Assembly (NCBI GenBank): GCA_016183365.1
Contig: JACPES010000003.1
Coordinates: 13,726 to 77,725 of the forward strand
Length of the DNA: 64,000 bases
Direction: 5' to 3'
Source: Candidatus Collierbacteria bacterium
GTDB lineage: Bacteria > Patescibacteriota > Microgenomatia > UBA1400 > JACPES01
The notes beneath the pieces are model-generated. The model was not told the origin of the DNA. It searched no databases and saw only the letters and a program-made list of their open reading frames with translations. Positions 3,962 through 58,340 of the stretch are shown here, piece by piece. The translations under genes were made by a program, and so were the position numbers. Position 1 is the stretch's first letter. Each line of letters begins with the position of its first letter.

Positions 3962-3992
3962 AAATTCAGTATATCAATGATTACAAGATACT

Positions 3993-4277
3993 ATGGTTAT
4001 TATTGAAAGTGGTATCATAAAGCTCATGAAAACTTATTCCTTTAGAACAATTATCGAACCGGATGATCCGTCGGGATATCATGGTTACGTTCCCAAGTTG
4101 AAAGGTGTTCATACCTGCGGAGAAACAATCGATGAAGTTCAACGAAATCTACGCCAGGCCATTAAATGTCATATTGAAGGACTGATGAAAGACGGTGAAC
4201 CAATGCCGACTGAAGAACGTTCAATCGAATCAATTCAAACTTTCTCTCGGCAGGATTTCACTCCAGTTTATGCCTAA
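3993..4277 (+). CDS. hicB: HicB-family antitoxin (UPF0150)
   Basis: The segment YSFRTIIEPDDPSGYHGYVPKLKGVHTCGETIDEVQRNLRQAIKCHIE is a typical HicB RNase-H-like fold signature. Its stop overlaps the ATG of a hicA-like ORF (ATGCCTAA). Confidence 0.8.
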   Translation: MVIIESGIIKLMKTYSFRTIIEPDDPSGYHGYVPKLKGVHTCGETIDEVQRNLRQAIKCHIEGLMKDGEPMPTEERSIESIQTFSRQDFTPVYA

Positions 4278-4496
4278 GTTGCCGGTTGTCAAGGCAAAAG
4301 TTTTGCTGAAAACCCTGCTTAAACTGGGATTTGAGAAGCACCATCAAGCAGGAACCATATCCAGCTGAAACACCCTGATGGGAGAAGGACGACGGTTCCA
4401 TATCATCCGTCCAAAGAAATCAGAAAAGGCACGCTTCGAGGCATTATCAGTGATATCGATTTGACGGTAGAGGAATTCATCCGAGCGCTAAAGTAA
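4270..4496 (+). pseudogene. hicA: HicA toxin disrupted by a frameshift
   Basis: Frame 0 reads MPKLPVVKAKVLLKTLLKLGFEKHHQAG and hits TGA at 4366. The +2 frame continues SRNHIQLKHPDGRRTTVPYHPSKEIRKGTLRGIISDIDLTVEEFIRALK to 4496. Together they form a complete HicA (GSH..HPDG...GTL) split around 4345. Confidence 0.65.
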
Positions 4497-4573
4497 AAAT
4501 CTGCTGGCAAACAAGGTGAAGTGTTAACCCCAAAAAACTTCCCCGGTGAAAGTCTGGTAAAATCGTAGAAGTT

Positions 4574-5371
4574 GTGAAATTTTTTCTGTGTCCCCTTAAT
4601 TTCAAAGTGAAACGCTTATTCAACTTTCAGAGATTAAAACAGTTGTTGGGCATTATGCTTATCTTGTTGGCTATTGTTTTTAGTCAGACTGTTTTAGTAG
4701 AAAAATTTGGTTTCAGTAACGTCGTTTACGCTCAAGTGCAATGCTGTACCTCACCGGCTCAAGTAACATTTGTTGGCGGAAATGTTTATTGTTCACTTCA
4801 TACCGGAACCGGCATTCCGACAAATTGCTCTGGATCAACCCCTAACTGTGATGTTGAAACTAACCAGTGTATTCCTATTCCCGACATTACTAATCCGCAA
4901 TGCTGTACCTCACCGGCTCAAGTAACATTTGTTGGCGGAAATGTTTATTGTTCACTTCATACCGGAACCGGCATTCCGACAAATTGCTCTGGGAACTGCG
5001 ACGTTCTAACTAACCGATGCATCAATTCTCTCCCCGGCGGCGGGCCGACGATCACCGTCTACGATCCGACGTGCAATTCTGGAACTGGATATTACGGTTA
5101 TTCCGGTGTTAAAAGTGCCTTGGGGTGTTTGCCGACTGATCCGCAAACGTTTATTAATACCGCCACCCCTTGGGCGGTGGGGATTGGAGCCGGAATTGCT
5201 TTTCTACTGGGGCTTTATGGAGCGCTGATGATTGTTATTTCCGCCGGCGACCCGGAAAAAATGCAGGCTGGCAAAGAAATTATTACCAGCGCGATTGCCG
5301 GACTATTATTAATAGTTTTTGCGGTTTTTATTTTAAGAATAATTGGGGTTGATGTATTAAAATTGTTTTAG
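4574..5371 (+). CDS. Secreted protein: duplicated Cys-rich module fused to a VirB2/TrbC-like pilin domain
   Basis: The signal peptide probably starts at MLILLAIVF. Two copies of QCCTSPAQVTFVGGNVYCSLHTGTGIPTNCSG are encoded by a 95-nt exact DNA repeat (4739-4833 and 4898-4992). The C-terminal pilin-like segment is TATPWAVGIGAGIAFLLGLYGALMIVISAGDPEKMQAGKEIITSAIAGLLLIVFAVFIL. Confidence 0.55.
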   Translation: MKFFLCPLNFKVKRLFNFQRLKQLLGIMLILLAIVFSQTVLVEKFGFSNVVYAQVQCCTSPAQVTFVGGNVYCSLHTGTGIPTNCSGSTPNCDVETNQCIPIPDITNPQCCTSPAQVTFVGGNVYCSLHTGTGIPTNCSGNCDVLTNRCINSLPGGGPTITVYDPTCNSGTGYYGYSGVKSALGCLPTDPQTFINTATPWAVGIGAGIAFLLGLYGALMIVISAGDPEKMQAGKEIITSAIAGLLLIVFAVFILRIIGVDVLKLF

Positions 5372-5388
5372 TCAAGAGTCATTAAATT

Positions 5389-5721
5389 ATGTTTATATCA
5401 CTAAGCGTGCTAGGTGTAGCTTTACCCGGAGGGGAAAGAGACCTTTTTTGGAGCGATCCGCTAGCGGGAAGGGGGAAGTTTGATGACATTGGAACGACTA
5501 TTACTTCTCTTCTCCCCTACCTTTTCATCATCGGCGGAATCGTGACGGGCGGAATGCTGATAATCGGCGGATTCGACATTTTAACTTCCATGGGCAGCGA
5601 AGAAAAACTAAAAAGCGGAGCGGAGAGAATCAAAAACGCCTTAATAGGGTTTTTATTGTTGTTCGCGGTTTATTGGCTGGCCCAAATCGCTCAAGTCCTT
5701 TTTAAAATACCTATTTTATAG
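5389..5721 (+). CDS. VirB2/TrbC-like pilin paralog 2
   Basis: Two hydrophobic helices separated by a GG..SMGSEEKLKSGAERIKNALIG loop, the same pattern as the other seven paralogs. Confidence 0.5.
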   Translation: MFISLSVLGVALPGGERDLFWSDPLAGRGKFDDIGTTITSLLPYLFIIGGIVTGGMLIIGGFDILTSMGSEEKLKSGAERIKNALIGFLLLFAVYWLAQIAQVLFKIPIL

Positions 5722-5761
5722 GGCCAAGGGACAAAGGCTAAGGGCTAAAGGCAGACAAAAA

Positions 5762-6121
5762 ATGCAAACAAAAAACAACCAGAGAACTGATTTACATGAA
5801 AGAATTTTTCGTTGGATAATTTCAGTTCTTAAACTATTAAAGACTGTCAATAAAGATGTCATCAGCATAGTAATAATTCAACAGTTGGCAAAATCATGTA
5901 CTTCTGTCGGAGCAAATGACCAGGAAGCAGTTACTTCTTCTAGCGACAAAGACTTTGTTTCTAAATATCAAATTGTAAAAAAGGAGCTTTCCGAAAGTAT
6001 TTATTGGCTAAGAATACTTAAAGAGATGTATCCTGACATTGACATTTCAAGCCAGTTAAACGAAAGCATTGAACTTCTTAGAATCATTAGTAAAATCATT
6101 CTCAACGTCAAGAATCGTTAA
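5762..6121 (+). CDS. Four-helix-bundle protein (23S rRNA intervening-sequence protein family)
   Basis: Signature SCTSVGANDQEAV.SSS.KDF..K..IVKKELSESIYWLRIL. The gene is flanked by the inverted repeats GGCTAAGGGCTAAAGG (5739-5754) and CCTTAGCCCTTAGCC (6173-6190). Confidence 0.6.
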   Translation: MQTKNNQRTDLHERIFRWIISVLKLLKTVNKDVISIVIIQQLAKSCTSVGANDQEAVTSSSDKDFVSKYQIVKKELSESIYWLRILKEMYPDIDISSQLNESIELLRIISKIILNVKNR

Positions 6122-6123
6122 GT

Positions 6124-6900
6124 TTGGTAAAATCTTTTCTAGAAATGAAAAAATCGTTTTCCCTTAGCCCTCATCCCTTAGCCCTTAGCCCTTTTCTCCC
6201 CCGGCACATCGCCATCATCATGGACGGCAACCGGAGATGGGCTAAAGCCCGCGGCCTGGCCGCCGTTATGGGCCATGACAAGGCGGCCCGCGACGTCATT
6301 GAGCCGATTGTTGATAGGGCGATCCAATTGGGAATAAAGTTTTTAACCTTTTGGGCTTTTTCCACCGAAAACTGGAAACGGGATAAAGCCGAAATCAGAG
6401 CATTAATGGGGATTTTCCGGGAAGGATTAGATAAATTGGGCGGTAAACTCAACGAAAAAGGCGTTCGTTTGAACGTCATTGGTGAAATGGAAAAATTCCC
6501 TGCAGATATCCAAGAAAAAACCAAGAAGTATATGGAGCTAAGCCGTGACAATATCCAAATCTCCGTCAGCTTCGCCCTGAACTATGGAGGAAGAGACGAA
6601 ATCCTGCGAGCCGTAAGACGGCTCTTCGAAAAAATTCGAAATTCGAAATTCGAAATTCGAAATTTAAACGAAGAAATGTTTGCGAAATTTCTTGACACCG
6701 CGGATATGCCGGACCCGGATTTGATCATTAGAACCGGCGGCGATCTGCGGTTATCCGGCTATTTTCCCTGGCAATCGGTATACTCGGAGTTATATTTCAC
6801 CAAAACCCTGTGGCCGGATTTCACCCCGAAGGAACTGGATAAAGCATTGGAAGATTACGAAAAACGAGAACGGCGATTCGGTGGCGGAGGGAGAAAATAA
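6124..6900 (+). CDS. uppS: Undecaprenyl diphosphate synthase
   Basis: Motif HIAIIMDGNRRWAKARGL and the usual UPP synthase core are present. The likely start is the ATG at 6145. The N-terminal extension is encoded by the CCCTTAGCC repeat, and an in-frame GAAATTC x4 repeat encodes KIRNSKFEIRNL. Confidence 0.85.
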   Translation: MVKSFLEMKKSFSLSPHPLALSPFLPRHIAIIMDGNRRWAKARGLAAVMGHDKAARDVIEPIVDRAIQLGIKFLTFWAFSTENWKRDKAEIRALMGIFREGLDKLGGKLNEKGVRLNVIGEMEKFPADIQEKTKKYMELSRDNIQISVSFALNYGGRDEILRAVRRLFEKIRNSKFEIRNLNEEMFAKFLDTADMPDPDLIIRTGGDLRLSGYFPWQSVYSELYFTKTLWPDFTPKELDKALEDYEKRERRFGGGGRK

Positions 6901-6902
6901 AA

Positions 6903-6985
6903 AAAATTGCTAAATTGTTATATTGTTAAATTGGAATACGCACCAATTAGTCCTGCAAAGCAGGATCTGGCTCTGCCAGACAATC
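6903..6985. repeat. About 80-nt hairpin repeat element, copy 1
   Basis: ATTGCTAAATTGTTATATTGTTAAATTGGAATACGCACCAATTAGTCCTGCAAAGCAGGATCTGGCTCTGCCAGACAATCCAGCAAT, containing a TCCTGC...GCAGGA stem-loop, followed by a CAATCTA heptamer array. Confidence 0.5.
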
Positions 6986-7030
6986 CAGCAATCCAACAAT
7001 CTAGCAATCTAGCAATCTGACAATCTAACA
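6981..7030. repeat. CAATCYA heptamer array running into the start codon of pilin gene 3
   Basis: CAATCCAGCAATCCAACAATCTAGCAATCTAGCAATCTGACAATCTAACAATG. Confidence 0.65.
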
Positions 7031-7360
7031 ATGTATTTATTCACAGTCAACATCGGCCAAGATTTAAAACTCCAGGACGATACTCCAATTGGCGACGTCA
7101 TCCAATTCCAAAGCGTCGGAGCCTTGATTTCCGCCTGGCTGCCAAATATTTATATTTTAGGCGGGATTATCGTCTTGATTCTAATCATTGTTTCCGGGTT
7201 TATGTGGATTACCAATGCCGGAAATATTAAAAAAATTGAAGAGTCTCAAAAGATCCTGACCTTTGCTATAATGGGTTTTATATTTTTGTTCGGGAGTTAT
7301 TGGATTATTCAAATAATTCAAGTCCTGACGGGAATACCGATATTGAATTCAAGTTTATGA
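7031..7360 (+). CDS. VirB2/TrbC-like pilin paralog 3
   Basis: Hydrophobic helix (ISAWLPNIYILGGIIVLILIIVSG), then FMWITNAGNIKKIEESQKILTFAIMGFIFLFGSYW. Confidence 0.5.
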   Translation: MYLFTVNIGQDLKLQDDTPIGDVIQFQSVGALISAWLPNIYILGGIIVLILIIVSGFMWITNAGNIKKIEESQKILTFAIMGFIFLFGSYWIIQIIQVLTGIPILNSSL

Positions 7361-7830
7361 AAATACTGAATGAAAAATACCGAATACTGAATAAAAAAAA
7401 GGGCGCATCTGACTTCCCTTATTCAGTATTCAGTATTCAGAATTCAGCATTCGTTTCTCTTGGCATCTTTGGCACCATTAAAAATCCTCTCGGCGATACT
7501 TTTGATAAAGCCGGAGGATACGCATCGGTTGAGGGCGGATTGGGGTTATTACTCACCAATCTCATCCGCTTAACTACCGTCGGCGCCGGCATTTGGTTTT
7601 TGGTCAATTTGATTACTGCCGGGGTGATGTATATCGGCTCCAACGGCGAAACCGAAAAAATCACTATAGCTTGGGCTAAAATTTGGCAATCGTTGATCGG
7701 CCTTTTGATAATCGTTAGTTCTTTGACCCTGGCAGCTATTATCAGTAAAGTATTTTTCGGTAGCTACTCCACCATTCTTAATCCGGTAATCTATGGTCCG
7801 GGCAATGCCGGAGGAGGAAAAATTCCATGA
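7357..7830 (+). CDS. VirB2/TrbC-like pilin paralog 4
   Basis: Starts at the ATG at 7357 (the ORF-track start at 7300 overlaps the previous gene). Core is GAGIWFLVNLITAGVMYIGSNGETEKITIAWAKIWQSLIGLLIIV. A TATTCAG heptamer repeat sits in the N-terminal region. Confidence 0.45.
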   Translation: MKILNEKYRILNKKKGASDFPYSVFSIQNSAFVSLGIFGTIKNPLGDTFDKAGGYASVEGGLGLLLTNLIRLTTVGAGIWFLVNLITAGVMYIGSNGETEKITIAWAKIWQSLIGLLIIVSSLTLAAIISKVFFGSYSTILNPVIYGPGNAGGGKIP

Positions 7831-8219
7831 CATTGACAGACATTAAGGCCGGCAATATTGGCGGTTTGCCTGACGGCTACCAGGCTATGCCGGCCTCCGA
7901 CGCTCCGGCCACTTTGGAAAAAATAATTTCCAACACAGTCGGATTTTTTACCGTGGTTGGAGGCTTGACATTTATCATTTATATCGTTTTAGCCGGCTTA
8001 ACCTGGATTACTGCCCGGGAAGAAGATGCCAGACTATCAAAAGCCAAACAAATGCTCACCAACGCCCTGATCGGGCTGGCCCTGATAGTTGTTTCTTGGG
8101 CCGTGGCCGGAATAATCGGGACTATTTTTGGATTTGACATTTTAAACCCGGGAAAATATATTGAAATGATATCGCCTGGCGGGAGCGGCGGCGATGAACG
8201 AGAAAAAAGATCATCATGA
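7827..8219 (+). CDS. VirB2/TrbC-like pilin paralog 5
   Basis: FFTVVGGLTFIIYIVLAGLTWITAREEDARLSKAKQMLTNALIGLALIVVSWAVAGII. It overlaps its neighbours by 4 nt, consistent with an operon. Confidence 0.5.
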   Translation: MTLTDIKAGNIGGLPDGYQAMPASDAPATLEKIISNTVGFFTVVGGLTFIIYIVLAGLTWITAREEDARLSKAKQMLTNALIGLALIVVSWAVAGIIGTIFGFDILNPGKYIEMISPGGSGGDEREKRSS

Positions 8220-8617
8220 AACGAATCTTTTATTTATCTATTTGCCTATTTGTCTATTTGTCTATTCTGTCTGCCTCTGCCTATGCCGCCGGCATCACCA
8301 ATCCGGCTCTTGCGGACGATCTGGGGAGGGGGGATCCGGCGAATGTTTTTGGCCGGTTCGTGGGAAGCTGGTGGGGATTGGCGTATGTCATCGGCGGATT
8401 GCTGTTTTTGCTTTACCTGGTGTGGGGCGGAGTGGAATGGATCATGGGCGGTGGCAATAAAGACCGGATCGAAAGCGCCAAAAATAAAATTTCCAACGGT
8501 ATTTTAGGGCTGACCCTGCTGGCTGCGTCGTTCGCGTTGGTAAAGGCAATTGGATTTGTGTTGGGAATTGATTTATTGGAAACTTTGACTTTTGATTTAT
8601 CCAGACTGGCGCCGTAA
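8216..8617 (+). CDS. VirB2/TrbC-like pilin paralog 6
   Basis: Signal peptide MKRIFYLSICLFVYLSILSASAYA. Core is WWGLAYVIGGLLFLLYLVWGGVEWIMGGGNKDRIESAKNKISNGILGLTLLAASFALV. The signal peptide is partly encoded by a TCTATTTG repeat. Confidence 0.5.
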   Translation: MKRIFYLSICLFVYLSILSASAYAAGITNPALADDLGRGDPANVFGRFVGSWWGLAYVIGGLLFLLYLVWGGVEWIMGGGNKDRIESAKNKISNGILGLTLLAASFALVKAIGFVLGIDLLETLTFDLSRLAP

Positions 8618-8669
8618 TCAATGTTTTGGTAAACTAACTGGAATGTGTTTGAAAAGGAGGTGAGAAATT

Positions 8670-9026
8670 ATGTCATTATTATCAACAGTGTTTGCGGCAG
8701 GAAGCGGAGATATTAATATCGGCCCCAAAGCAACGGCGGCCGGAGTGGACAAAGTAGGCACTATCGGTGATTTAATTGGCGCGGCCATTGGCTCGGCATT
8801 CTTAATCGCCTTCCTGCTGGTATTCGTAATGCTGGTTTTTGGCGGCGTCCAATGGATTACTTCCGGCGGAGACAAAGAAAATACCCAAAAAGCCAAAGAC
8901 CGGATAACTTCCGCTTTGGTGGGAATAGCGATCATCGGCGGAGCTTGGGCTTTAATGAGAGTTGTAGAATTTTTCTTCAACATCGATATCTTGGGTGGAT
9001 TCAAATTGCCGTCGGCGGCGCAATAA
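8670..9026 (+). CDS. VirB2/TrbC-like pilin paralog 7
   Basis: Preceded by an AAGGAGGTGAG ribosome-binding site. Core is GAAIGSAFLIAFLLVFVMLVFGGVQWITSGGDKENTQKAKDRITSALVGIAIIGGAWALM. Confidence 0.5.
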   Translation: MSLLSTVFAAGSGDINIGPKATAAGVDKVGTIGDLIGAAIGSAFLIAFLLVFVMLVFGGVQWITSGGDKENTQKAKDRITSALVGIAIIGGAWALMRVVEFFFNIDILGGFKLPSAAQ

Positions 9027-9043
9027 ACGCGATCCGAATAAGA

Positions 9044-9178
9044 TGATGTCTTGAAGGTGGAAGATGGAAGTCCTTGATCTTGAAACCTTGACGAATCACC
9101 ATCGAGGATTCAAGGTAGCAATCACATCAAGTTCAAAAACCTCAAGAGCATCCATCTTCAAAACATCTATTTCGTGGA
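9044..9178 (+). repeat. About 140-nt palindromic intergenic element, copy A (between pilin genes 7 and 8)
   Basis: Starts GATGTCTTGAAG...CTTGATCTTGAA.CCTTGAC and ends ...ATCAAGTTCAA.AA...CAAGAGCATCCATCTTCAAAACATC. The two ends are inverted repeats of each other. Confidence 0.6.
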
Positions 9179-9211
9179 TTAGTATCGCTTTTCTCTGCTA
9201 TACTTTCAGAT

Positions 9212-9547
9212 ATGAGAGTGTGGGCAGTCGGATTAGTCACCAATGATGCTCCGAATTCTTTGGCCGATATTGAAACGGTAATTAAGAATTTATTGGGATC
9301 GGCTGCCAGCCTGATTGGGTTGGCTATTTTTGTGATGCTGGTGGTCGGAGCCTTTCAATACATTACTTCCGGAGCGGACCAAAAAGCTGTGGAAAAATCC
9401 CGACAAGTATTCACTTTTGCCTTGATGGGCGGAGCCGCGATCATAATTTTATGGCTGGTATTTGTTTTCCTGAAAGAATTCACCGGCATTGACTTACTGA
9501 AGTTTAATATTTGTATATTTCAAGATGAATTCTGCAAATTGCCGTGA
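9212..9547 (+). CDS. VirB2/TrbC-like pilin paralog 8
   Basis: ASLIGLAIFVMLVVGAFQYITSGADQKAVEKSRQVFTFALMGGAAIIILWLVFVF. Confidence 0.45.
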   Translation: MRVWAVGLVTNDAPNSLADIETVIKNLLGSAASLIGLAIFVMLVVGAFQYITSGADQKAVEKSRQVFTFALMGGAAIIILWLVFVFLKEFTGIDLLKFNICIFQDEFCKLP

Positions 9548-12408
9548 AAAAATTTACTATTTTGCCAATATTCATGCTTCTGCTCTTGAGTATAAGTTTA
9601 CAACCCACTCCGGCCGACGCTTTGGAAACCTGCGTTCCCCAGCAGATAAATCCCAACGAACCCCATGAATTCCGACCCAATCCCGGGCAAATCTGCACTC
9701 CCGAGATTCCGCAAGCAGCCCGCTTAACCTGCGGCACTGATCTGGTAGCCCAAAAAACCGTCAACGCGGCTCGGGGCGGGACTGGCTGCTCGCCGGCAAA
9801 TCCGACCGTCGGACAAACAGTTACCTGCACTAGGGATCTTAGTGTTGATGTGCCGATTTCCATCGGGCTGGCGGGATTGGAATTACCAATCGCCGGCGTG
9901 GCCAGCAACACCCAAGTCAGCGATACTTTAAACCCCGCCCAAAAAATGAGCCAGTACACCAGTTGGTATCTTCAAGGAGTCAAAGAGGATGGCACCAATG
10001 CCAAAGCCCTGGCCGACTACATGAACGGCATCATCAATAGCACCGGTGGCATCGGTAACCTGAAGCTCCTGTCGCCGGTTTTTAATATCCCCAGCTTCCA
10101 AACGCCCGGTCTGTTTGCCGCCATAGAAGCAGCCGGGGCAAAATTCAGTGAGCTGGATGCTTTCGCCGGCAACACCTACACCTTGGAAGGCCGCAAAGCT
10201 TATGACTGGTACGCCGATTTCCTGAAGGGAAAGGCGGATCAGTACGGCAAAAAAGTGATCTTCACCGAATTCGGTGATTTCGCCACCATCAACACCCAGC
10301 CAGACAACCGCCCGGATGTGGTCGCGACAATGAAGCAAGAGTTTGACCGGACGATGAGTGATGGCAATATTGAATCGGCGTTATATTTCAACGCGCTGGG
10401 AGATAATCCCGGCTTCGGTGGTTTTCGCCTGTCGCCGGATGAGCTGCGGGCGATTACTCAAGGCGCGCCTCGCCGAGCCGGGATTAACTCGGCCTCGCCG
10501 GTAAATGGCGGCGGCGGTTTTGCCACGCGCGTCGCCGACCTTGGTCTGGGTTGGACGCTGGAAATTGCCTACAACCCCAGCGATAAAGACGCTGTCGTCA
10601 GCGCGTTTAACACCGCAATTGCCCGCGGCCTGACACCGATCCTGCGAATCTGCGCCGGCGATGCCTGCGAATTCAGCGATCCGGCCGTCTATGCCCAATT
10701 CCTGCGCGACATTGCTCCCCGGATCAATGGCACCTTTTGGGCGATTGCCGGGCCGAACGAACCGGATATCGAAACTTGGGTAAGTGGAACTTCGAGCGTT
10801 CAGACCGACCAGTTCAGCTTCTTGGGTCCGATCAAAAAACTGGTTTCCGATACCGTCATCGACCAGAAAAAAACCGATCTGATCAATGCCGCAGTCGCCG
10901 GAACCGCGTATAACCAAATTATCGGCTACGTGTACCACAACGCCGTCATTCCTCGGCTGGAAGCAAAGAATTTGCTGCAGCAAAACCCCCGCCAGACTGA
11001 TATCCAGCGGATCCGCCTCACCGATATGGCCAATCATCTTAATCCGGCCTACATCGAAGGGGATCAAGAAGCCCTAAAGTGGTATATCCTCTGGCGCGAC
11101 ATGCCGTTTAGTCAAACCGTGGATCTGCCGGGTGAAATTTTCGCCACCACGTCGCTAGCCGATGCCAACGTCAAAAACGCCAGATTAACAATCACCTCGA
11201 CACTGGCGGACTTCCGGGTGGCCTTCCCCCATTTGGTGGAAGACGACCAAATGAGCCAATTGCTGCAAGCGGTGTTTCGGCCGCTGGGAGTGGCTGAAAC
11301 CAGCGGTTTTTCCGAACCGAATGCGGTGGATTATTCCACCGTCAATCGAGCCACACCGTTTAATACCAACTATTGCGATCTGCGGGAAACTTATAGCAAT
11401 CGCGGCGACAGCCTGGAAACCACCCGAACGATTACCGGCAACTTTAGCTTCACCAAAACCGTTACATATTCTTATACTCATGGAGAAAAAGACGCCAACG
11501 GCAAGCTCCTGACCACGATTGATGTAGATGTGTCGGGGCCGGTGTCGGTTTTCGCCCGCAATCCGCTGTCCATCGACAATATCTACGATCGATTAGTTGG
11601 CGGCCCATCAGCAATTTTTAAAGCCATTTTCCCCAACCCCGATCAAACCCTCGGTGGGATCAAGGACCTGCCGGCGGCAGCGCCGATCTCCATGAATTGC
11701 GGCTCCGGCTGCACGGTGAAACCCGGTAATCAAGAAGGGCGTAAAGCCGAGGTTTTCTTCGCCCACTGGGGCAGCGTGCTGACTTACTTCCACGACAAGC
11801 TCCAAAAAGCCCTTGACCCGCTGGGACGCACTAGCGCAGGTCCGAATCCGCCAGGCGGCGGAGGCTTATCTTGCACTATGCCGATTACTTCCTGCGGCCC
11901 GGTCAATTGGAACCTCGGTCTCTTTGACACTTATTTCAACGCTTACAATTCGGATAACAATAGCTCCTGGAGTCTGATCAAAGAACCATGGGCGCAGCAG
12001 CTGATCGGCCAAACCGCCGGCTGGAGCTGTCCGCAGTTTGTCAGTACCTTGTGGCTTGAGGAATCCGGTGGATCGGCAATCGGGCAGTATGATTTGGGTT
12101 GCATTTATCACCTCGATGGACACAGGGCACTAACCAGTGATCATCGCGGCGGGCCGGCTGATTTTCCCACCTACACCGCCTTTAAAAATCACTATGAACC
12201 CATCCTCAAAGATCAGCTCGCTTGTCTGCGCTCGTATATCGAACCGATCGGTGAAGATTTTCAAACCTTCATGTGTCAGTACAGCGGAGAGACCGATGCC
12301 GATCCGACTAAGCCATTCCGCCAATGCGATACCTTTACTAACAATCCCAATTTCCCCGTCAACATGTGTAAAATCGGCGGCGAAGTGGGAATTGCCACCC
12401 CAAACTAG
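9544..12408 (+). CDS. Large secreted protein (954 aa) with glycoside-hydrolase-like motifs and a Cys-rich C-terminal domain
   Basis: Signal peptide MKKFTILPIFMLLLLSISLQPTPADA. Motifs VIFTEFGDF and WAIAGPNEPD resemble TIM-barrel hydrolase catalytic motifs. Gly/Ala-rich codon use raises local GC. Confidence 0.45.
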   Translation: MKKFTILPIFMLLLLSISLQPTPADALETCVPQQINPNEPHEFRPNPGQICTPEIPQAARLTCGTDLVAQKTVNAARGGTGCSPANPTVGQTVTCTRDLSVDVPISIGLAGLELPIAGVASNTQVSDTLNPAQKMSQYTSWYLQGVKEDGTNAKALADYMNGIINSTGGIGNLKLLSPVFNIPSFQTPGLFAAIEAAGAKFSELDAFAGNTYTLEGRKAYDWYADFLKGKADQYGKKVIFTEFGDFATINTQPDNRPDVVATMKQEFDRTMSDGNIESALYFNALGDNPGFGGFRLSPDELRAITQGAPRRAGINSASPVNGGGGFATRVADLGLGWTLEIAYNPSDKDAVVSAFNTAIARGLTPILRICAGDACEFSDPAVYAQFLRDIAPRINGTFWAIAGPNEPDIETWVSGTSSVQTDQFSFLGPIKKLVSDTVIDQKKTDLINAAVAGTAYNQIIGYVYHNAVIPRLEAKNLLQQNPRQTDIQRIRLTDMANHLNPAYIEGDQEALKWYILWRDMPFSQTVDLPGEIFATTSLADANVKNARLTITSTLADFRVAFPHLVEDDQMSQLLQAVFRPLGVAETSGFSEPNAVDYSTVNRATPFNTNYCDLRETYSNRGDSLETTRTITGNFSFTKTVTYSYTHGEKDANGKLLTTIDVDVSGPVSVFARNPLSIDNIYDRLVGGPSAIFKAIFPNPDQTLGGIKDLPAAAPISMNCGSGCTVKPGNQEGRKAEVFFAHWGSVLTYFHDKLQKALDPLGRTSAGPNPPGGGGLSCTMPITSCGPVNWNLGLFDTYFNAYNSDNNSSWSLIKEPWAQQLIGQTAGWSCPQFVSTLWLEESGGSAIGQYDLGCIYHLDGHRALTSDHRGGPADFPTYTAFKNHYEPILKDQLACLRSYIEPIGEDFQTFMCQYSGETDADPTKPFRQCDTFTNNPNFPVNMCKIGGEVGIATPN

Positions 12409-12411
12409 TAA

Positions 12412-13992
12412 TTGATGGACAAATTTTGTGATATGCTATTTGTAATGAAGCGCGTCTGCCGCCGGCTGACAACTATCTTAACTATCTTAACGATTCTGGC
12501 CCTGCTGCGGCCAGTCTTCGCCCAGGACATCAAGGAAAATCCCTATTGGCGCCAGAGCACCACTTCCCAAGTCCAGGAGGTTGAGGTGGGGCCGGAAAAC
12601 GAAGTCACCGCTCCCCGCTACACCTATTTCCAAACCAATACTACTTTTAACGCCATCAGCGCCGGAATTCTCGATCCCACCGGCCAAAATCAATCGGCAG
12701 CTGTGCCGCTATTGGGCCGGTCCATTGCCTTGCTTACCGGCCGGCCGCCGGTCCAAACCCATGAATATCTGGCGTATATGGCAAGCAAGGCTGGGTTTAT
12801 TGACCAGGCTTACGCCCAGTCAAGAGGCGGGTTTGAGGTCTTACAGCCGATTCAAAAATTATGGATTGCCACCCGAAACATAGCCTACTTGATCACTTCC
12901 CTAACTTTAGTAGTAATTGGATTTATGATCATGCTGCGGAAAAAAATCGACGCCCAGACAATTGTCGGGGTCGAACAGGCTTTGCCGAATTTGGTCATCA
13001 CCCTGCTTTTAATTACCTTTAGCTACGCCATTGCCGGATTTGTGATTGATATGATTTATTTCGTGTCGTTTTTTGGAATTAAATTGCTAGCCCTGAATAA
13101 CATTTTTGCTCCAGGAGACTACGGCAGTGCCGCCATTGAAACCATCAGAACTAAATCCATCTTCTCTATCGGCATCCGGGATCTATTCCGGATTGGCGGC
13201 ACCAGCGCCGGCTCGGCCGAAACCGCCGCGGACGCCGTCGGCAATTTAATCGCGGAATTATTGGGCGAGGGCAAACTGTTCGCGGCTACGCAAATAATTT
13301 CCCAGCCGATCGCTTACGTCATTTTCGCCGTCGCGATTTTGTTCGCGGTTTTTAAGCTGTTCTTTAGCCTTTTGATGGCGTATATCCAAATAATTTTATT
13401 GGCCATATTGGGGCCGCTGCAACTGATGCTCAACGCCTTGCCGGGGAGTGACGCATTTTCTAAATGGTTTAGAAATCTTTTGGCTAACGCCATGGCTTTT
13501 CCGGCTGCCATTATGATGCTGGTCTTCGCCGCCGCTCTGATGGGCCAAACCGGCGAACATTTTAGGATTGCCGACGACATTGGTTTTACCGATAGCGTAA
13601 GCGGGGTTAAATGGATCCCGCCCTTGGTTTTCGGAAGCGGGGCCGGAGCCACCAATCCCGTCGACGCGGTCATCGCCCTGATCGGAATCGGGATCCTGCT
13701 GATGACACCCAAGGTCGTGGATATGGTCAAAGAAGCCATCCAAGCCCCCGAATTCAAGTACGGCTCCGCCATCGGCGAAGCGGTTGGGTTTGGGTGGTCA
13801 CCAATTAAACGTGGTTGGGGAGCGGGAACCGACATAGCAAGACAAGAAAGACAATTCAGAGAACAAGCCAGAATTTGGGGCAAAGAAGATTTATCACCAT
13901 ATCAACCGCCAACAGGACAACAACCTACTCGCTGGACAGATTTGAGGGGTCGCCTCGGTGCATTTGGACGCCGATTTACGGGTTTGCAATAA
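12412..13992 (+). CDS. Polytopic membrane protein, VirB6/TrbL-like
   Basis: Signal peptide followed by at least six TM helices (e.g. LITSLTLVVIGFMIML and LVITLLLITFSYAIAGFVIDMIYFVSFFGI). It sits directly downstream of the pilin array. Confidence 0.4.
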   Translation: MMDKFCDMLFVMKRVCRRLTTILTILTILALLRPVFAQDIKENPYWRQSTTSQVQEVEVGPENEVTAPRYTYFQTNTTFNAISAGILDPTGQNQSAAVPLLGRSIALLTGRPPVQTHEYLAYMASKAGFIDQAYAQSRGGFEVLQPIQKLWIATRNIAYLITSLTLVVIGFMIMLRKKIDAQTIVGVEQALPNLVITLLLITFSYAIAGFVIDMIYFVSFFGIKLLALNNIFAPGDYGSAAIETIRTKSIFSIGIRDLFRIGGTSAGSAETAADAVGNLIAELLGEGKLFAATQIISQPIAYVIFAVAILFAVFKLFFSLLMAYIQIILLAILGPLQLMLNALPGSDAFSKWFRNLLANAMAFPAAIMMLVFAAALMGQTGEHFRIADDIGFTDSVSGVKWIPPLVFGSGAGATNPVDAVIALIGIGILLMTPKVVDMVKEAIQAPEFKYGSAIGEAVGFGWSPIKRGWGAGTDIARQERQFREQARIWGKEDLSPYQPPTGQQPTRWTDLRGRLGAFGRRFTGLQ

Positions 13993-14047: not shown

Positions 14048-16420
14048 TTAAATAGCTCTCGTAACTTTATGATAGTTTAAACTATTCGGTCCAAAATACT
14101 GCGGCGGGGCCAAACACAAGGAATGATCCGCACCCGCTCCGATTAATCCTTTCTTGGCCAACTTTTCTAGGTTCATTTGCAATACACCTTTTTGGTCACC
14201 ATTGATCAATCCCTCGTTTTCCATAAACTCATACAATTGAGACAAATGGTATAAACCAAATGGAATACGCCCAGCAAGCCAATGCATCGAAAATCTGTTA
14301 TGCCCATTCTGAGTGATAGCCTCATGAGTTTTTACCATCTTATCGACACGATTTCTTTCATCCCCTAATAAATTGGGGTTCTGTTTCATCTCGCTCAATG
14401 ATCGTCCAGCTTCACGGTATAATTCCGCAGTCGTAGCTGTATAAAATAAAGGTCTGCCGCTAGGACCAACTAAAAACCTTTCGGATTCATCTTCAACCCA
14501 CCAACATCCAATTTCTTTTAATGCTTTCTCAAATTCTTGAAGTTCAGCAACTTGTATATTTGCGGAAGCATCTGTAAACCAATCTTTAACCAGACGGTCG
14601 TAAGTAATTCCATCGGGAGCTACCTTTAACCCATTGCTCTTTACGAACTGCTTATAATCAAACATCAGGAAACGGCTTTCTTGATCATCTAATTTCCCAA
14701 CACAGTGCATCCGAGTAAGCCCCTTAAGCCAAAAATAAGTAAATGGAAGCGCCTGCTGATCCTCTGTGAAAGCAAAAAATTTACCTTGGTTATAACTATC
14801 TGCCAGGACCTTGGTTGCGGCTTTGGAAATTTCGATCGCCCTAACTCCCATAAGAAGCACTTGTTCTGGATTACTTTTATAACTCCTTTCACCCTTTGTC
14901 AGTTGTCCACCCCTCGCTTCTATAACTTTATTAACCATCTGTATCACCTCAGCAGTATCCAATACCTTCCCCGCGTAACGAACCCAATTATCAAAATCCC
15001 TTGATCCGATTTTAGACCAGTCAAATATTGCGATTCCTTTCTGGGATGCAAATTTAATCATGTTACGGAATCCTTCCTCGCCATTGTTTTGGCCAACCGG
15101 TAAACCAGAAACATTTCCTAAAATCTTATCCAAGAGGAGGAGGTGATAGATATTCAATTGTTCCTCGAGGGGCAATGTCGCAAAGTTCGCCTTTACGTGC
15201 TGTAATTCATTTGAAATTTGCGCATGCATCTGTACGAAATTAACTCCATTAAAAAGCGTTGAATGACGTTCGGCTCTCGTCTCCCACAGCTCCACCGGCC
15301 TCATATGATCGACTGGAATAAACGCGTATTCCGACACCGTATCCTCCATCTCAGCAGTTGTCATTCGACCGCGTCGCGCCTGTATTGTTGCCGCTAACGC
15401 AATATCAGATTCTCCTTCGCGTGGGCGATAAAGAAAAATATCTTTCAGCGCTTCAATTCGTCTTCTTGCCAAATTTACCTCCGCTGACGGTGCTCCTGGC
15501 GACGCTTCAAATAGACCCCAAAAATAAGATAGGGCATCTTTAGCGTATTTCGACACACCTCCTGGATAAATTGGCGTCAGGTTCGCTTCGGGCGCAATCT
15601 GCGCATCAATCATTCCATACTCTATAAAATAGCGAGCTCCAGGCATTTTCCTGGCATGAAATTCTCGGTGGCTGCCTTTCACTGTTTGCGTGTATTCAAG
15701 GACATCGTTAGTAATATGCAAGAACGCTTCGGCTCCATAAGCAATTGGCGCTAGAAAATCTTCCAACTGTCCTGTCGACTCAATCGGATATCCATTATAT
15801 GTCTGGTACTCTCCCCAACGGACGTTCAAAGACTCACGAGGAATTTCTAATTGATCTTCAACTAACTCATCAATGAGGTGTTTATACTTCGAGGCATGAC
15901 GACCAGGCGTATCGGCTTCTCGAAGCTGACGCGCCATTTCCGGCCTATAAGCCACTCTCCCCATTACATCAGCTAGTGAGAAATCAAGCGGGCGGTTGGC
16001 AAATTCTCCTTCAAGTCGAACCTTCATATCTTTTACGCCGACATAAGGAATAGCCGCAATATTATCGGGAGGAATAGGACTAACCATACCACGAATTTGT
16101 TCAAAATTCGTATATCCTTCAACATCCGAAATCGCCGCGACGTGAGCAACCAATCCGAGAAGAGATCCTATCCCAAGGGTACCAACGTGTTCTCCCCAAT
16201 CAATAGAACCAATGTCATTCGACGTAACCTGCGACCGGAGGAGTTGAAAACTTTGAGGATGTTTAGCAAGTGCTTTCATTAAGTGCCCTCGCATAAACTG
16301 CCCTCGTTCCCGAGGCGAAAGCGTCCTTGCATAATCCATAATTTCAGGAAGTTGATAATATCGGCCAACTCCAAACAACATCTGTTGAAGTAGCCCCATC
16401 ATATCTTCAGGACCTGGCAT
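14048..16420 (-). CDS. Hypothetical cytoplasmic protein (790 aa), last gene of a 4-gene operon
   Basis: Long intact ORF with no signal peptide or TM segment and no domain I can recognise. It lies 4 nt from the upstream gene. Confidence 0.5.
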   Translation of the reverse strand: MPGPEDMMGLLQQMLFGVGRYYQLPEIMDYARTLSPRERGQFMRGHLMKALAKHPQSFQLLRSQVTSNDIGSIDWGEHVGTLGIGSLLGLVAHVAAISDVEGYTNFEQIRGMVSPIPPDNIAAIPYVGVKDMKVRLEGEFANRPLDFSLADVMGRVAYRPEMARQLREADTPGRHASKYKHLIDELVEDQLEIPRESLNVRWGEYQTYNGYPIESTGQLEDFLAPIAYGAEAFLHITNDVLEYTQTVKGSHREFHARKMPGARYFIEYGMIDAQIAPEANLTPIYPGGVSKYAKDALSYFWGLFEASPGAPSAEVNLARRRIEALKDIFLYRPREGESDIALAATIQARRGRMTTAEMEDTVSEYAFIPVDHMRPVELWETRAERHSTLFNGVNFVQMHAQISNELQHVKANFATLPLEEQLNIYHLLLLDKILGNVSGLPVGQNNGEEGFRNMIKFASQKGIAIFDWSKIGSRDFDNWVRYAGKVLDTAEVIQMVNKVIEARGGQLTKGERSYKSNPEQVLLMGVRAIEISKAATKVLADSYNQGKFFAFTEDQQALPFTYFWLKGLTRMHCVGKLDDQESRFLMFDYKQFVKSNGLKVAPDGITYDRLVKDWFTDASANIQVAELQEFEKALKEIGCWWVEDESERFLVGPSGRPLFYTATTAELYREAGRSLSEMKQNPNLLGDERNRVDKMVKTHEAITQNGHNRFSMHWLAGRIPFGLYHLSQLYEFMENEGLINGDQKGVLQMNLEKLAKKGLIGAGADHSLCLAPPQYFGPNSLNYHKVTRAI

Positions 16421-16424
16421 AGCG

Positions 16425-17474
16425 TTATCCTCCGTTCCTTCCCAACATAGACTTTAAAACACGCAAAAGTATGCCAATGTCAGCTCCGGGAGGAATCAAT
16501 CCGATGTCAGGCGAAAAACCCAAAGCGTCATCTCTTCTGAGTCTTTCGTATAGATTGATTAATGATCCGTTCTGTTTTTCTAAATCATTTGGAAATTGAC
16601 CAACTAGTGTCTGTCTCAACTCAACAAGGAAATTAGCAGCAATCTGTTCACCTGTATTCTGTCGATCTGAACTAAGTTTTAGTACATTCTCTATCGCAAA
16701 TTGATGTTGAACCTCTTCACCTAAACGTAGTAATATAACACGCAGCTCGCTCCTATTTCCATTCCATGCCGATAAATTCCCAGAAAGTCGTCTGGGGTTA
16801 GCGTCAATTTCTTTTATCATGCTCTGTAGAGTGAGAAGTGTTCTGTTTTTATCTATTCCAAGATTTCGTTGAAGGCCAGCTAGCCACTGTTGCTGTTCTG
16901 ACGGAAGCCCTATACGCCAATCAGCCGGTTGAATAGCCGCCTGCGGTTCGGGCGGCGACGTCGCCGGACGGCGGGCCTCGCGGATAATTTCCTCAATCGG
17001 CCGCCTGTCGCCCCCGGCTTGAGCCGCCCTAATCGCTTCGTAAATTTTCCGATATTCTTCAAAAGTACAAAGTGGCTTCCCGCCAACCGTTATCTGTTCT
17101 CCGTCACCCAAATCCTTCTGCCGCTGGCTCTCGATATATTGACCTATCTTATCAAGATTTACCTGCCCCGCCATCCCCGCAAAATATTTCTCCACCGGAT
17201 CGACCCCCCCCCCTCCCCCCATCTCCTCCGGATTTGATTCGTCCACCTTTCCCGCCGCCCGCAATTGTTCCAGCGGAGTCGTCGCCGGCCCAAACATTTG
17301 TTCGACATCGGCAGGCCCCAAATCCCTCACTTCGCCAACTCCCGCGTTCGCCTCGTGATTAGTTCCAAGCTGCGGAGCTGTACCTTCCGCCAGTCCGGCC
17401 GGAAACTGTCCTACCGGTAGCCCCTCCGGTCTTTGTCCTGGTGATAATTGTTCTGTGTTCATCTGATCAGGCAT
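16425..17474 (-). CDS. Hypothetical protein (349 aa)
   Basis: Intact ORF with a Gly/Pro-rich N-terminal region; tightly linked to its neighbours. Confidence 0.45.
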   Translation of the reverse strand: MPDQMNTEQLSPGQRPEGLPVGQFPAGLAEGTAPQLGTNHEANAGVGEVRDLGPADVEQMFGPATTPLEQLRAAGKVDESNPEEMGGGGGVDPVEKYFAGMAGQVNLDKIGQYIESQRQKDLGDGEQITVGGKPLCTFEEYRKIYEAIRAAQAGGDRRPIEEIIREARRPATSPPEPQAAIQPADWRIGLPSEQQQWLAGLQRNLGIDKNRTLLTLQSMIKEIDANPRRLSGNLSAWNGNRSELRVILLRLGEEVQHQFAIENVLKLSSDRQNTGEQIAANFLVELRQTLVGQFPNDLEKQNGSLINLYERLRRDDALGFSPDIGLIPPGADIGILLRVLKSMLGRNGG

Positions 17475-17519
17475 TGAGAAGATTATAGCAATGTGAAGAG
17501 ATAGCTACAAACAGAAAAA

Positions 17520-18095
17520 TTACATCCCGTGATCCCTCGGCTCATAAACGGGATTAAAACATCTATGTCTACCCTGCGCAATCTGTTCAGCCAAGCGATT
17601 TTCGATCTTCTCAAGCAATGCCGGATCTTTCACCAAGAACAAATCACTTTTACTATTAACAATCACCGATGCTGCTTCTACCCAAATCTTATTCGGATTA
17701 TCAATTTCTAATTCAACTCCAAGTTTAGTTGTTGTTTCTCCTTCTCCCCTGTCTTTTTCCACAAAAAACCCAACTGTTTCGGCATGATACATTCCACCCT
17801 CTTTATTTTTAAGATCGTAACAATCTACAATCCCCTTTCGTATATGCAATTCGACTGCCGGATCAACCTCCTTAAGAACGCCCAAAACATCTACTAAAAC
17901 TCTTTGGACGCCGGTGGCCTCAAGGGCTTTTTTCCCTTTCTCAAATCTAACCTTTTCCAAGGCCTCTTGTTGTCGTGTTTTTTCTTGATACTCAATGAGC
18001 AATTTGCGCTGCTCCTCCTCCTGCAGCCGTAACTCCGCCGCCTTTTCAGCTTCAGCCCGCTGAATAATTTGTTGGACTTTCTCTTTAATACTCAT
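17520..18095 (-). CDS. Hypothetical protein (191 aa) with an N-terminal coiled coil
   Basis: N-terminus is rich in E, K and Q (AEAEKAAELRLQEEEQRKLLIEYQEKTRQQEALEK). Confidence 0.45.
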   Translation of the reverse strand: MSIKEKVQQIIQRAEAEKAAELRLQEEEQRKLLIEYQEKTRQQEALEKVRFEKGKKALEATGVQRVLVDVLGVLKEVDPAVELHIRKGIVDCYDLKNKEGGMYHAETVGFFVEKDRGEGETTTKLGVELEIDNPNKIWVEAASVIVNSKSDLFLVKDPALLEKIENRLAEQIAQGRHRCFNPVYEPRDHGM

Positions 18096-18129
18096 ATATA
18101 AAATAAAATTTCGGATTGTAAATACCGTC

Positions 18130-19245
18130 TTATCTTTCCATTCCAGCTAAAATGTCCACCATTGCCCTCTTAACATTTGTCTCGTTAGGCTGAGCGATTA
18201 GCTTTCCTCCAAGATTTGCTTCAACCGTTACATAGAGACCTAATTTACCATCAGTTTTCATCGTACTAAAACGAATGGCAAAAGTATCCCGGGAAGACTC
18301 TGGTAGATAAAATTCATCTCCTTCTTTGGCCGGATAAGAAAATCCAAAACATTTCTCTGCTAAATACTTAAAACACCTTTTTTGTGTAATCTCAATTGCG
18401 ATTTCATCTCTAAGACTAATGACGTTTTCAGGTGGGGTGTTGACAATAATATGCTGAGATAGTTCTTTCCCTGTATCTAAGAACGACATCGGCTGGCCAC
18501 AAAACGCCGTAATAGACAAGGTTGGCACCCCCTTGTTAACTCCTATGGCCTTTGCGGCTAAACGGTAAGGTGGCTTACTATCCATATCTTCGATAAAAAA
18601 ACCTTTCCCTGCAAATCTATTCGAACCATCGCTTGTTAGATAATTAGTCGACTCCGATATTAATTGCGGAACGTGTAATCTCTCTAAGGAATCAACTGAT
18701 TCTCTGCACATGGGCGAGTCTGCGCTAATTTTTTTTAATTTATTACTAATTATCTCCGGGCGTAACTGCGCCAAGGCTTCTTCTTGTTCTTTTTTCTTCT
18801 TCGCTTCAGCTTCACCCTCTCGCGTACTTCTCAATGCTTGCACCTCATCTATTAGAGATATTAGAGATGGCTCCGTTCCTATGCCAGCGAGGGGGATGGT
18901 CACCTCAGGTATTACTTGTTGTTTGCGTACGCGGATTTCTTCTAGTCTAGCCCTATAATCAGCAAGTAAAATATCTGCTCCTTGAACTTTCACCGTCTTA
19001 ACGCCGCGTTGTGTTTGCTCATCAGCCCACTGAAGAAATTTATTTGTTTGATCTGCTCCCGCCGTTTCGACTTTACCAAAGTAATCAGCAAATGGATCAT
19101 CTCCGCCGCCCATCGCTTTCGGATTAAAACCAATCTCGACGCCCGCAGCGGTAAGTCTAGCGAGCGCTTCAATTCCGGCAGCAGAACCGGAGCCAAGGTA
19201 GGGAAGATTTTCTTCTAATCTTTTCACTTTATACGAGTATATCAA
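18130..19245 (-). CDS. Hypothetical protein (371 aa), first gene of the operon
   Basis: Starts at a TTG at 19245. Its 5' region (19248-19294) is near-identical to 20716-20762. Confidence 0.45.
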   Translation of the reverse strand: MIYSYKVKRLEENLPYLGSGSAAGIEALARLTAAGVEIGFNPKAMGGGDDPFADYFGKVETAGADQTNKFLQWADEQTQRGVKTVKVQGADILLADYRARLEEIRVRKQQVIPEVTIPLAGIGTEPSLISLIDEVQALRSTREGEAEAKKKKEQEEALAQLRPEIISNKLKKISADSPMCRESVDSLERLHVPQLISESTNYLTSDGSNRFAGKGFFIEDMDSKPPYRLAAKAIGVNKGVPTLSITAFCGQPMSFLDTGKELSQHIIVNTPPENVISLRDEIAIEITQKRCFKYLAEKCFGFSYPAKEGDEFYLPESSRDTFAIRFSTMKTDGKLGLYVTVEANLGGKLIAQPNETNVKRAMVDILAGMER

Positions 19246-23559: not shown

Positions 23560-23862
23560 TTATCCTGCCTTCAAATACCCGTCCGCAAAGGCTTCCTGTG
23601 CCCGTTGCACGAGTTGGTCAATTGTCATTCCCGTCCTCTCCGCGAACAGCTCTTCCATCCGCTTTTTGGCCTGCTCCTCATCACCAATCGCTTCCACTTC
23701 TTTCATATCCTCTTCCGTCAAACTCGTCATTAAAGCCGCGTACACGTCCAAGGCCGACAATTTCGCCACCCCGGACAACAACTGCCCGACCTCTTCGTCG
23801 GTCTTTCCCTCGGTTTTAAGTTTGGCAAGCCAATCAGAAAAGACTGTTGTTGGTTGATTCAT
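23560..23862 (-). CDS. Small acidic helical protein (100 aa)
   Basis: Intact ORF, last gene of a 3-gene operon that overlaps the upstream gene by 4 nt. Confidence 0.4.
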   Translation of the reverse strand: MNQPTTVFSDWLAKLKTEGKTDEEVGQLLSGVAKLSALDVYAALMTSLTEEDMKEVEAIGDEEQAKKRMEELFAERTGMTIDQLVQRAQEAFADGYLKAG

Positions 23863-31768: not shown

Positions 31769-31786
31769 TTTTGGAAATTCGTTACA

Positions 31787-32785: not shown

Positions 32786-32844
32786 CAACCGCGCGACCGA
32801 CAACATGATCCTCAAACAATTCCTCGAACTGGCAGACGGAATTT

Positions 32845-34168: not shown

Positions 34169-34177
34169 AATTAACAA

Positions 34178-58269: not shown

Positions 58270-58340
58270 ATTGTTAATTGAAATACACGCCAATTAGTCC
58301 TGCGAAGCATGATCTGGCCCCGCCAGACAATCTAGCAAAT
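58258..58340. repeat. About 80-nt hairpin repeat element, copy 2
   Basis: TATTGTTAAATTGTTAATTGAAATACACGCCAATTAGTCCTGCGAAGCATGATCTGGCCCCGCCAGACAATCTAGCAAAT, about 85% identical to copy 1. It lies immediately before the start of the YidC-like gene. Confidence 0.5.

Follow-up and report, generated by a model that had tools for sequence, protein, structure and literature searches.

The locus described here raises the question of what eight small two-helix proteins do for a Candidatus Collierbacteria bacterium, and why the first of them carries a cysteine-rich head. It lies in a 64,000-nucleotide stretch of the 588-kb contig JACPES010000003.1 from a metagenome-assembled genome (MAG) of the Microgenomatia (Patescibacteria); this whole 64-kb stretch is called the window below. 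Eight small open reading frames (ORFs), all on the forward strand, fall within 4574–9547 and are numbered as pilins 1 to 8. An earlier sequence-only reading of this DNA had reported eight ORFs with a two-hydrophobic-helix layout, and all eight are present. In hydropathy each shows a pair of transmembrane (TM)-like helices around a short polar loop of roughly the form S.G[DN].EK...AK. The two-helix layout holds throughout, but the motif given in that reading is loose, with only two invariant alignment columns across the eight. The genes are also not strictly tandem, as had been supposed: an IVP-family gene (PF05635) and uppS separate pilin 2 from pilin 3, and this interruption is kept in related genomes.

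4574–5371, forward strand: pilin 1 (NCBI MBI2309518.1, HYU89_01345), 265 amino acids (aa) from GTG 4574; the NCBI start is GTG 4607 (254 aa), and ATG 4655 is possible too; signal peptide, two Cys modules, stalk and PF18895 hairpin (42.1 bits, residues 190–256)
5389–5721, forward strand: pilin 2, 110 aa, without signal peptide; PF18895 37.8 bits
5762–6900, forward strand: two non-pilin genes inside the array, an IVP-family four-helix protein (PF05635, 5762–6121) and uppS (6124–6900)
7031–7360, forward strand: pilin 3, 109 aa; PF18895 13.7 bits, below the Pfam cut-off; E = 7e-11 with the outside-homologue model described below
7357–7830, forward strand: pilin 4, 157 aa from ATG 7357 (listed start TTG 7300); PF18895 15.7 bits; E = 3e-6 with the outside-homologue model
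7827–8219, forward strand: pilin 5, 130 aa, strong Shine–Dalgarno sequence; PF18895 32.1 bits; PF04956 21.9 bits (E = 2e-4)
8216–8617, forward strand: pilin 6, 133 aa, signal peptide; PF18895 31.7 bits
8670–9026, forward strand: pilin 7, 118 aa, strong Shine–Dalgarno sequence; PF18895 37.9 bits; predicted helices at residues 29–64 and 69–103
9212–9547, forward strand: pilin 8, 111 aa; PF18895 23.4 bits; E = 2.6e-8 with the outside-homologue model; stop codon overlapping the next gene's start

The start of pilin 4 is most likely ATG 7357; the listed TTG start at 7300 overlaps pilin 3. The pilin genes form an operon-like run on one strand (4574–13992) with short or overlapping junctions, which closes with a large secreted protein and then a polytopic membrane protein. 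Promoter and terminator scans gave nothing better than the shuffle expectation.

Our answer to the question is that the locus is, on balance, probably a VirB2-like pilin array of a chromosomal monoderm-type (MPF-FATA-like) type IV secretion system (T4SS), with pilin 1 as a specialised headed member. On sequence grounds, membership of the eight ORFs in the T4SS_pilin family (PF18895) is solid. Pilins 1, 2, 5, 6 and 7 score above the gathering score of 26.6 bits, and pilins 3, 4 and 8 fall below it. A hidden Markov model (HMM) built solely on 98 homologues from other genomes, using the C-terminal 85 aa of each, recovered exactly the eight pilins among the 718 stop-to-stop ORFs of the window (E-values from 6.6e-42 to 3e-6), with no further window ORF up to E = 10. 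PF18895 matches are found in 42 of 43 aligned relatives.

The exchangeable head of pilin 1

Pilin 1 differs from the other members by its long N-terminal region, which is divided as follows.

4574–4732, forward strand: long signal peptide with a basic n-region (KVKR..R.K) and the hydrophobic core LLGIMLILLAIVF
4739–4873, forward strand: Cys module 1, 45 aa with six Cys (QCC...C...C..STPNC.....C)
4874–4897, forward strand: linker after module 1, 8 aa (PIPDITNP)
4898–5023, forward strand: Cys module 2, 42 aa with six Cys, three codons fewer than module 1
5041–5371, forward strand: stalk and two-helix PF18895 domain, with a nearly invariant Cys pair (C...GCLPTDPQ)
4738–4833, forward strand: copy 1 of an exact direct repeat of 96 nucleotides (nt), encoding the first 32 aa (four Cys) of module 1
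4897–4992, forward strand: copy 2 of the 96-nt repeat, encoding the first 32 aa of module 2

Signal peptidase I is predicted to cleave between VYA and QV, and the homologues of pilin 1 show equivalent A-x-A-type sites. The sequence-only reading had proposed that pilin 1 carries a surface-directed, variable Cys-rich region, and the homologues bear this out, with unalignable heads beside a conserved C-terminus. The C-terminal 108 aa are 70–98% identical in about 47 of 99 homologues, and the heads of these same proteins range from 38 to 339 aa with up to 31 Cys. The head of pilin 1 is the only hypervariable part of the array proteins.

The comparison with a contig from an aquifer (L004) located the boundary of the exchange. 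DNA identity between the two is 92–96% over SpoIID, pilin 1 from 5041 onward, pilin 2 and UppS. There is no alignment from 3978 to 5040, the segment that holds the toxin–antitoxin (TA) genes, the signal peptide and the head. The DNA breakpoint at 5041 is exactly the boundary between head and stalk. In the conserved C-terminal part, 6 of 109 codons differ, four of them synonymously and two non-synonymously. Between strains whose flanks are 92–98% identical, the head has been swapped wholesale, along with the signal peptide and the upstream TA genes.

Headed pilins are widespread. An exhaustive phmmer search with the C-terminal domain returned 7,235 cluster representatives. Among the 145 best single-domain matches, 135 have at least 60 residues ahead of an extreme C-terminal hairpin, and their heads contain a median of nine Cys. 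The open-access literature that we searched holds no mention of a headed pilin with a hypervariable Cys-rich ectodomain, of 1:1 orthology among array members or of within-population variation in module copy number.

The interval that separates SpoIID from the long pilin is a TA hot spot, in which different genomes hold different modules and the modules are replaced together with the pilin head (3962–4573 in the window; 426–969 in L004; 6483–7940 and 8624–9875 in the related contigs L005 and L015). In the window this gap holds HicB and a short HicA-like ORF, and in the relatives PhdYeFM/YafQ, MNT/HepT or HigBA-like pairs. A second mosaic block was seen against L004 at 5619–6204, with 23 mismatches in about 100 nt at the 3' end of pilin 2, mostly synonymous; the IVP region cannot be aligned to L004. 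This second block indicates several recombination tracts in the locus.

Pilus subunits or a membrane platform

The explanation that competes most strongly with a pilin array is that the proteins are membrane-resident two-TM components or anchors of the T4SS translocon, with pilin 1 as a surface receptor anchored by its PF18895 hairpin. We consider this possible, though not probable. The pilin identity proposed in the sequence-only reading stands in so far as the proteins belong to the Pfam T4SS_pilin family and a T4SS lies in the region; its TrbC/VirB2 side was found only as weak matches in pilins 5 and 6. The best scores with PF04956 (TrbC/VirB2) were 21.9 bits for pilin 5 (E = 2e-4) and 15.2 bits for pilin 6, and the other six gave no match. 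Any match to PF04956 was seen in only 2 of 43 relatives. With hhalign, 59 columns aligned colinearly with eight authentic plasmid VirB2/TrbC proteins (P = 0.0039, compared to P = 0.45 for reversed decoys). The link from PF18895 to genuine VirB2 is weak, but this colinear similarity above decoy level and the sub-threshold TrbC matches speak against purely membrane-resident components.

Signal-peptide prediction, which the sequence-only reading had proposed as a check, gave a signal-peptide-like N-terminal segment in pilins 1 and 6 and none in the other six. For pilins 5 and 7, the leaderless starts are backed by strong Shine–Dalgarno sequences. The six could insert via YidC, which fits a membrane-resident set. 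Two YidC/60KD_IMP insertase genes are found in the window of this reduced genome, at 40947–41744 and 58339–59106, and these are relevant to leaderless insertion of short hairpins. The topology would be N-out and C-out with a cytoplasmic loop; for pilin 1 an outside N-terminus is expected because it has a signal peptide and a disulfide-rich N-terminal domain. A short-loop hairpin of this orientation is exactly the membrane form of VirB2, which tells against the membrane-resident alternative.

The AlphaFold2 models of the pilin hairpins are confident, with predicted local distance difference test (pLDDT) scores of 84–89; the helices span residues 29–64 and 69–103 in pilin 7, and 163–195 and 200–234 in pilin 1. 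The predicted fold is a generic helical hairpin, and fold searches gave no significant match among solved pilins. The sequence-only reading had named a generic membrane hairpin unrelated to T4SS pilins as a refuting result. The finding speaks for membrane-resident proteins, but since the fold is generic, the structure neither supports nor refutes the pilin label.

PrgF, a small two-TM protein of the Gram-positive pCF10 T4SS, was compared together with its relatives as a possible homologue and rejected. The hhalign signal did not exceed that of a reversed decoy (P = 0.13, against 0.025 for the decoy); the plasmid PrgF relatives are too uniform for a deep profile. PrgF itself has weak matches to Maff2 and DUF4134 and none to PF18895. 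Similarity at noise level to PrgF counts against the membrane-resident explanation.

Natural fusions bear on both explanations. Chains with two to seven PF18895 domains exist (P0361, P0270, P0272, P0276 and P0305); P0361 consists of a signal peptide and seven domains, and P0270 of a head and three domains. The fused domains suggest that the paralogues work side by side and co-assemble.

Several observations weigh against the pilin array. No pilin reaches the PF04956 gathering score of 27.9 bits, and authentic VirB2 controls score 60–75 bits. The hhalign probability against VirB2/TrbC is just 8.6%. A search of the PDB sequences with the PF18895-family profile found neither VirB2 nor TraA and no significant match. 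Six of the eight pilins are without the long cleavable leader typical of VirB2/TraA, and fusions with up to 14 TM helices suit a membrane-resident complex equally well. The array is not adjacent to the T4SS genes: the core cluster begins about 19 kb away, with PrgI at a distance of about 23 kb and virB4 at about 25 kb. The model of the pilin 1 head is unreliable (pLDDT 42–54) and was too poor for a fold search. Monoderm T4SSs are normally without a pilus (PMC12102498); no pilus has been reported for such arrays, and a 2025 review names one as a possibility only (PMC12857230). What supports the pilin label is the name of the family, a weak colinear similarity, the topology and the T4SS nearby.

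Module number and the age of the paralogues

The sequence-only reading had described a 95-nt identical direct repeat with a period of 159 nt, encoding a 32-aa module, and had taken it for a fresh duplication. The repeat is real and its period is 159 nt, but its exact extent is 96 nt (4738–4833 and 4897–4992). The structural unit is not 32 aa long but comprises a 45-aa six-Cys module and an 8-aa linker. Past the identical block, identity falls from 96/96 to 22/30 (73%) with a 9-nt indel, and the chance of finding no difference in 96 nt at that divergence is 1e-13. The identical 96 nt are therefore not a fresh duplication of the unit. More probably, the two modules are an older repeat in which the 5' part was homogenised later, presumably by gene conversion. 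Tandem Repeats Finder reported no repeat in 4400–5500; the repeat is only partly identical. Internal repeats are seen in the heads of just 3 of 96 homologues, and none of these is exact, so a perfect repeat is unusual for the family.

A diversity-generating retroelement target, which would call for a template and a variable repeat that differ at adenines and for a nearby reverse transcriptase (RT), was rejected as an origin of the repeat; the two copies differ at no position, and a single gene holds both in frame. The scan of window ORFs of 100 aa or more turned up no RT domain; a few such ORFs, among them 17520–18095, 53526–53912 and 62344–62910, lay outside the scan. The IVP/Avd-superfamily gene is present without an RT partner.

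The sequence-only reading had also raised the possibility that the repeat is recombinationally active. This agrees with independent Logan assemblies (k = 31) of the identical strain, which are 100% identical over every aligned base and fall into two classes. In the one-module class, contigs of SRR12113425, -426 and -428, and one more contig, read through the repeat region and lack 159 nt, which is one repeat period; the encoded protein (P0001) has 185 aa. In the branched class, left contigs stop at 4767 (SRR12113424, -384, -385 and -431) and right contigs restart at 4963 (the same four and also -383 and -419). Both positions are exactly 30 nt (k − 1) into the outer edges of the repeat pair. 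A branch at both repeat borders is the behaviour of a k = 31 graph in which the loop is present, so the two-module allele is real. As judged from the assembly graphs, the samples differ in how many modules they carry or, at the least, in the frequencies of the two alleles. Deletion by recombination between the 96-nt repeats would be the simplest mechanism.

It is unlikely that the difference between one and two modules is an assembly artefact, with the gene always carrying two modules and k = 31 assemblies collapsing the repeat. An exact repeat of 96 nt is longer than k, which makes the loop removable by graph simplification. The evidence also comes entirely from contigs and is graph behaviour rather than counted reads, which weighs against active variation in module number. 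However, in six or more other samples this pipeline left the branch in place and broke the contigs exactly at both repeat edges, so the collapse is not systematic. Judging from how de Bruijn graphs are cleaned, loss of the 63-nt unique arm would need its absence or a much lower coverage there, which is the heterogeneity itself. The read-through contigs are 1.4–2.9 kb long, and a chance coverage gap confined to the arm is improbable in several samples.

Pairwise identity among the paralogues is 20–39% with a mean of 30%. The sequence-only reading took low identity as a sign of diversifying surface subunits. The low identity was confirmed, but ongoing diversification was not, since related genomes hold a 1:1 orthologue of every window pilin, arranged in the same order and with 54–90% aa identity, compared to 74–76% for UppS. 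The related contigs L005 and L015 share the order SpoIID, variable TA genes, long pilin, pilin 2, IVP, UppS and six pilins. L015, the sole related contig reaching that far, adds the large secreted protein and then the polytopic protein. Orthologues in the same order at UppS-like identity mean that the low identity between paralogues reflects ancient specialisation. The eight paralogues are ancient and individually conserved.

That the eight are instead interchangeable alternative major subunits serving antigenic or host-range variation, a view for which their low identity speaks, which is close to the diversification suggested in the sequence-only reading and which published discussion has raised by analogy to the virB2 copies of Bartonella and Anaplasma (PMC12102498), is very improbable: each is conserved in its place as well as UppS, overlapping gene junctions suggest co-expression, fused multi-pilin proteins exist, and blastn and tblastn found no silent head cassettes elsewhere in the window.

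Proposed assembly, surroundings and known systems

If the locus is a pilin array, the eight hairpins would combine into a single heteromeric structure associated with the T4SS, whether pilus or membrane platform. Each paralogue would hold a fixed, non-redundant place in it, as minor pilins and pseudopilins do, and would not be an interchangeable antigenic variant. The stalk and hairpin of pilin 1 would anchor or polymerise the protein, and its disulfide-stabilised head of six-Cys modules would be exposed outside the cell. This head may be the surface by which the T4SS apparatus makes specific contact with a host cell, and its turnover may track host or phage pressure. Exchange of heads between strains would take place at the head/stalk boundary. 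Within populations the head would be resized when homologous recombination between the repeats deletes one unit, and gene conversion would preserve the identity of the 96-nt block as the rest of the unit diverges. Going further, we tentatively suggest that headed PF18895 pilins are the host-specificity determinant of the patescibacterial T4SS, although we would not yet call this likely. A cassette-like, disulfide-rich head would be plugged into a heteromer of fixed paralogues, first at the tip; heads would be swapped by way of the pilin domain as a homology arm, and would be tuned by repeat-mediated gain and loss of modules.

Few systems have been shown to be indispensable to Patescibacteria living as epibionts, and the T4SS with its pilin array is one of them. 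Pilin 1 offers a concrete and widespread candidate for the contact specificity of this T4SS, as it combines a conserved hairpin with a hypervariable, disulfide-rich ectodomain. The ectodomain is swapped between near-identical strains, and the number of modules appears to vary within a single aquifer population. We argue that the remaining pilins of the array serve as fixed structural parts and not as antigenic variants, which changes how pilin arrays are read. What is new here is a headed, cassette-like pilin with apparent within-population module variation. If the head is the specificity determinant, this one gene could reveal which partners uncultivated Microgenomatia can have.

The remaining genes of the operon-like run and the T4SS core cluster are as follows.

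9544–12408, forward strand: 954-aa secreted protein, no NCBIfam or Pfam match, syntenic in L015
12412–13992, forward strand: polytopic membrane protein of 526 aa, last gene of the pilin operon, with 287 homologues without a Pfam domain
28166–37092, forward strand: T4SS core cluster of monoderm type, adjoining dnaN and dnaA
28166–31768, forward strand: M23 and NAGPA wall hydrolase, the first gene of the core cluster, followed by a 332-aa ORF
32845–34035, forward strand: PrgI/VirB3-family protein
34178–34870, forward strand: TrsD-like protein
34867–37092, forward strand: VirB4-like ATPase (TraG P-loop, 104.6 bits)
37189–38271: dnaN
38504–39931: dnaA

The start of the 954-aa protein overlaps the stop of pilin 8 by 4 nt, which suggests translational coupling of the two. 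It is 38% identical to its syntenic orthologue and is fast-evolving; it may be a second fast-evolving exposed component. Its relatives are modular, with the C-terminal third in common, and some have SGNH/GDSL hydrolase domains. The 526-aa protein is a weak candidate for a divergent VirB6/TrbL. Two of its homologues are named TrbL/VirB6 by UniRef, and within its family PF04610 matches weakly in 2 of 41 members and TrbL_5 in one. It may be the "missing" divergent VirB6 of Microgenomatia.

Two runs of large ORFs lie between the pilin operon and the T4SS core, at 14048–19245 and 23859–27043 (reverse strand). They include Pro/Ala/Glu-rich proteins, which lie in a segment of raised GC content (about 52%). 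Searches of the large ORFs in both runs with NCBIfam and Pfam gave no matches. Within the array, the IVP ORF is flanked by imperfect inverted repeats of GGGCTAAGGG-like units (5720–5752 and 6161–6196). These pair in the RNA fold as a long-range stem around the whole ORF (z = −2.2), which we liken to an rRNA intervening-sequence hairpin, but within an mRNA. With uppS called from TTG 6124, the 5' end of this gene and the 3' arm of the stem overlap. Directly after the stop of pilin 3, at the 5' end of pilin 4, AATACTGAAT-type simple repeats at 7362–7451 form a hairpin with 33-nt arms.

The array is of a known kind and fits the published description of patescibacterial pilin arrays. In a survey of 3,035 Patescibacteria genomes with PF18895, PF04956 and other profiles, 441 pilin arrays were described; Microgenomatia and Saccharimonadia had the most of them, and the T4SS was often near dnaA (Quinonero-Coronel et al. 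2025, PMC12102498). In Southlakia, growth as an epibiont was found to require the predicted pilin subunits (Wang et al. 2023, PMC10633639; see also PMC12857230). PF18895 is common to the present array and to the VirB2-like arrays of Southlakia epibionticum ML1 (SEML1_0006-0019) and N. lyticus TM7x (the "Sec secreted array"). Like these, the locus has a FATA-like T4SS near dnaA, a VirB4 with PrgI and TrsD partners, and an array, here of eight divergent pilin genes with two adjacent non-pilin genes between pilins 2 and 3. It differs from the published arrays in that it lies outside the core cluster, at the distance given above, and not within it. The Trw system of Bartonella has amplified copies of trwL (virB2) and trwJ (virB5), and Anaplasma has virB2 paralogues; these have been proposed to widen recognition of host surfaces (cited in PMC12102498). 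As in the present locus, a bacterium that depends on a host carries several divergent paralogues of a T4SS pilin. The Bartonella and Anaplasma copies are regarded as variant surface subunits, whereas the short paralogues here are individually conserved and the variability is in one appended head.

The VirB2/TrbC/TraA proteins of diderms (PF04956) are likewise small, with two hydrophobic helices, a short loop and an N-out/C-out topology. They are likewise encoded with VirB3, VirB4 and VirB6-type genes and show weak colinear profile similarity to the present proteins. Unlike them, the proteins here have a loop about seven residues longer with a conserved S.G[DN].EK..AK motif, most members are without a long leader, and the organism is a monoderm. 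To our knowledge, an N-terminal ectodomain of 100–300 aa is not a feature of canonical VirB2.

The minor pilins and pseudopilins of type IV pili and type II secretion systems are fixed sets of divergent, co-encoded paralogues, each conserved and all built on one polymerisation domain, and one member of the set bears a bulky extra domain. The analogy with the present array is functional only, as fold and machinery are unrelated, and the conserved domain is N-terminal in type IV pilins but C-terminal here. In the streptococcal alpha C/Rib and M proteins, identical intragenic repeats allow the in-frame loss or gain of whole extracellular modules within a population. Compared to these, pilin 1 has two units only, of which 96 of 159 nt are identical, and its anchor is a pilin-type hairpin rather than LPXTG.

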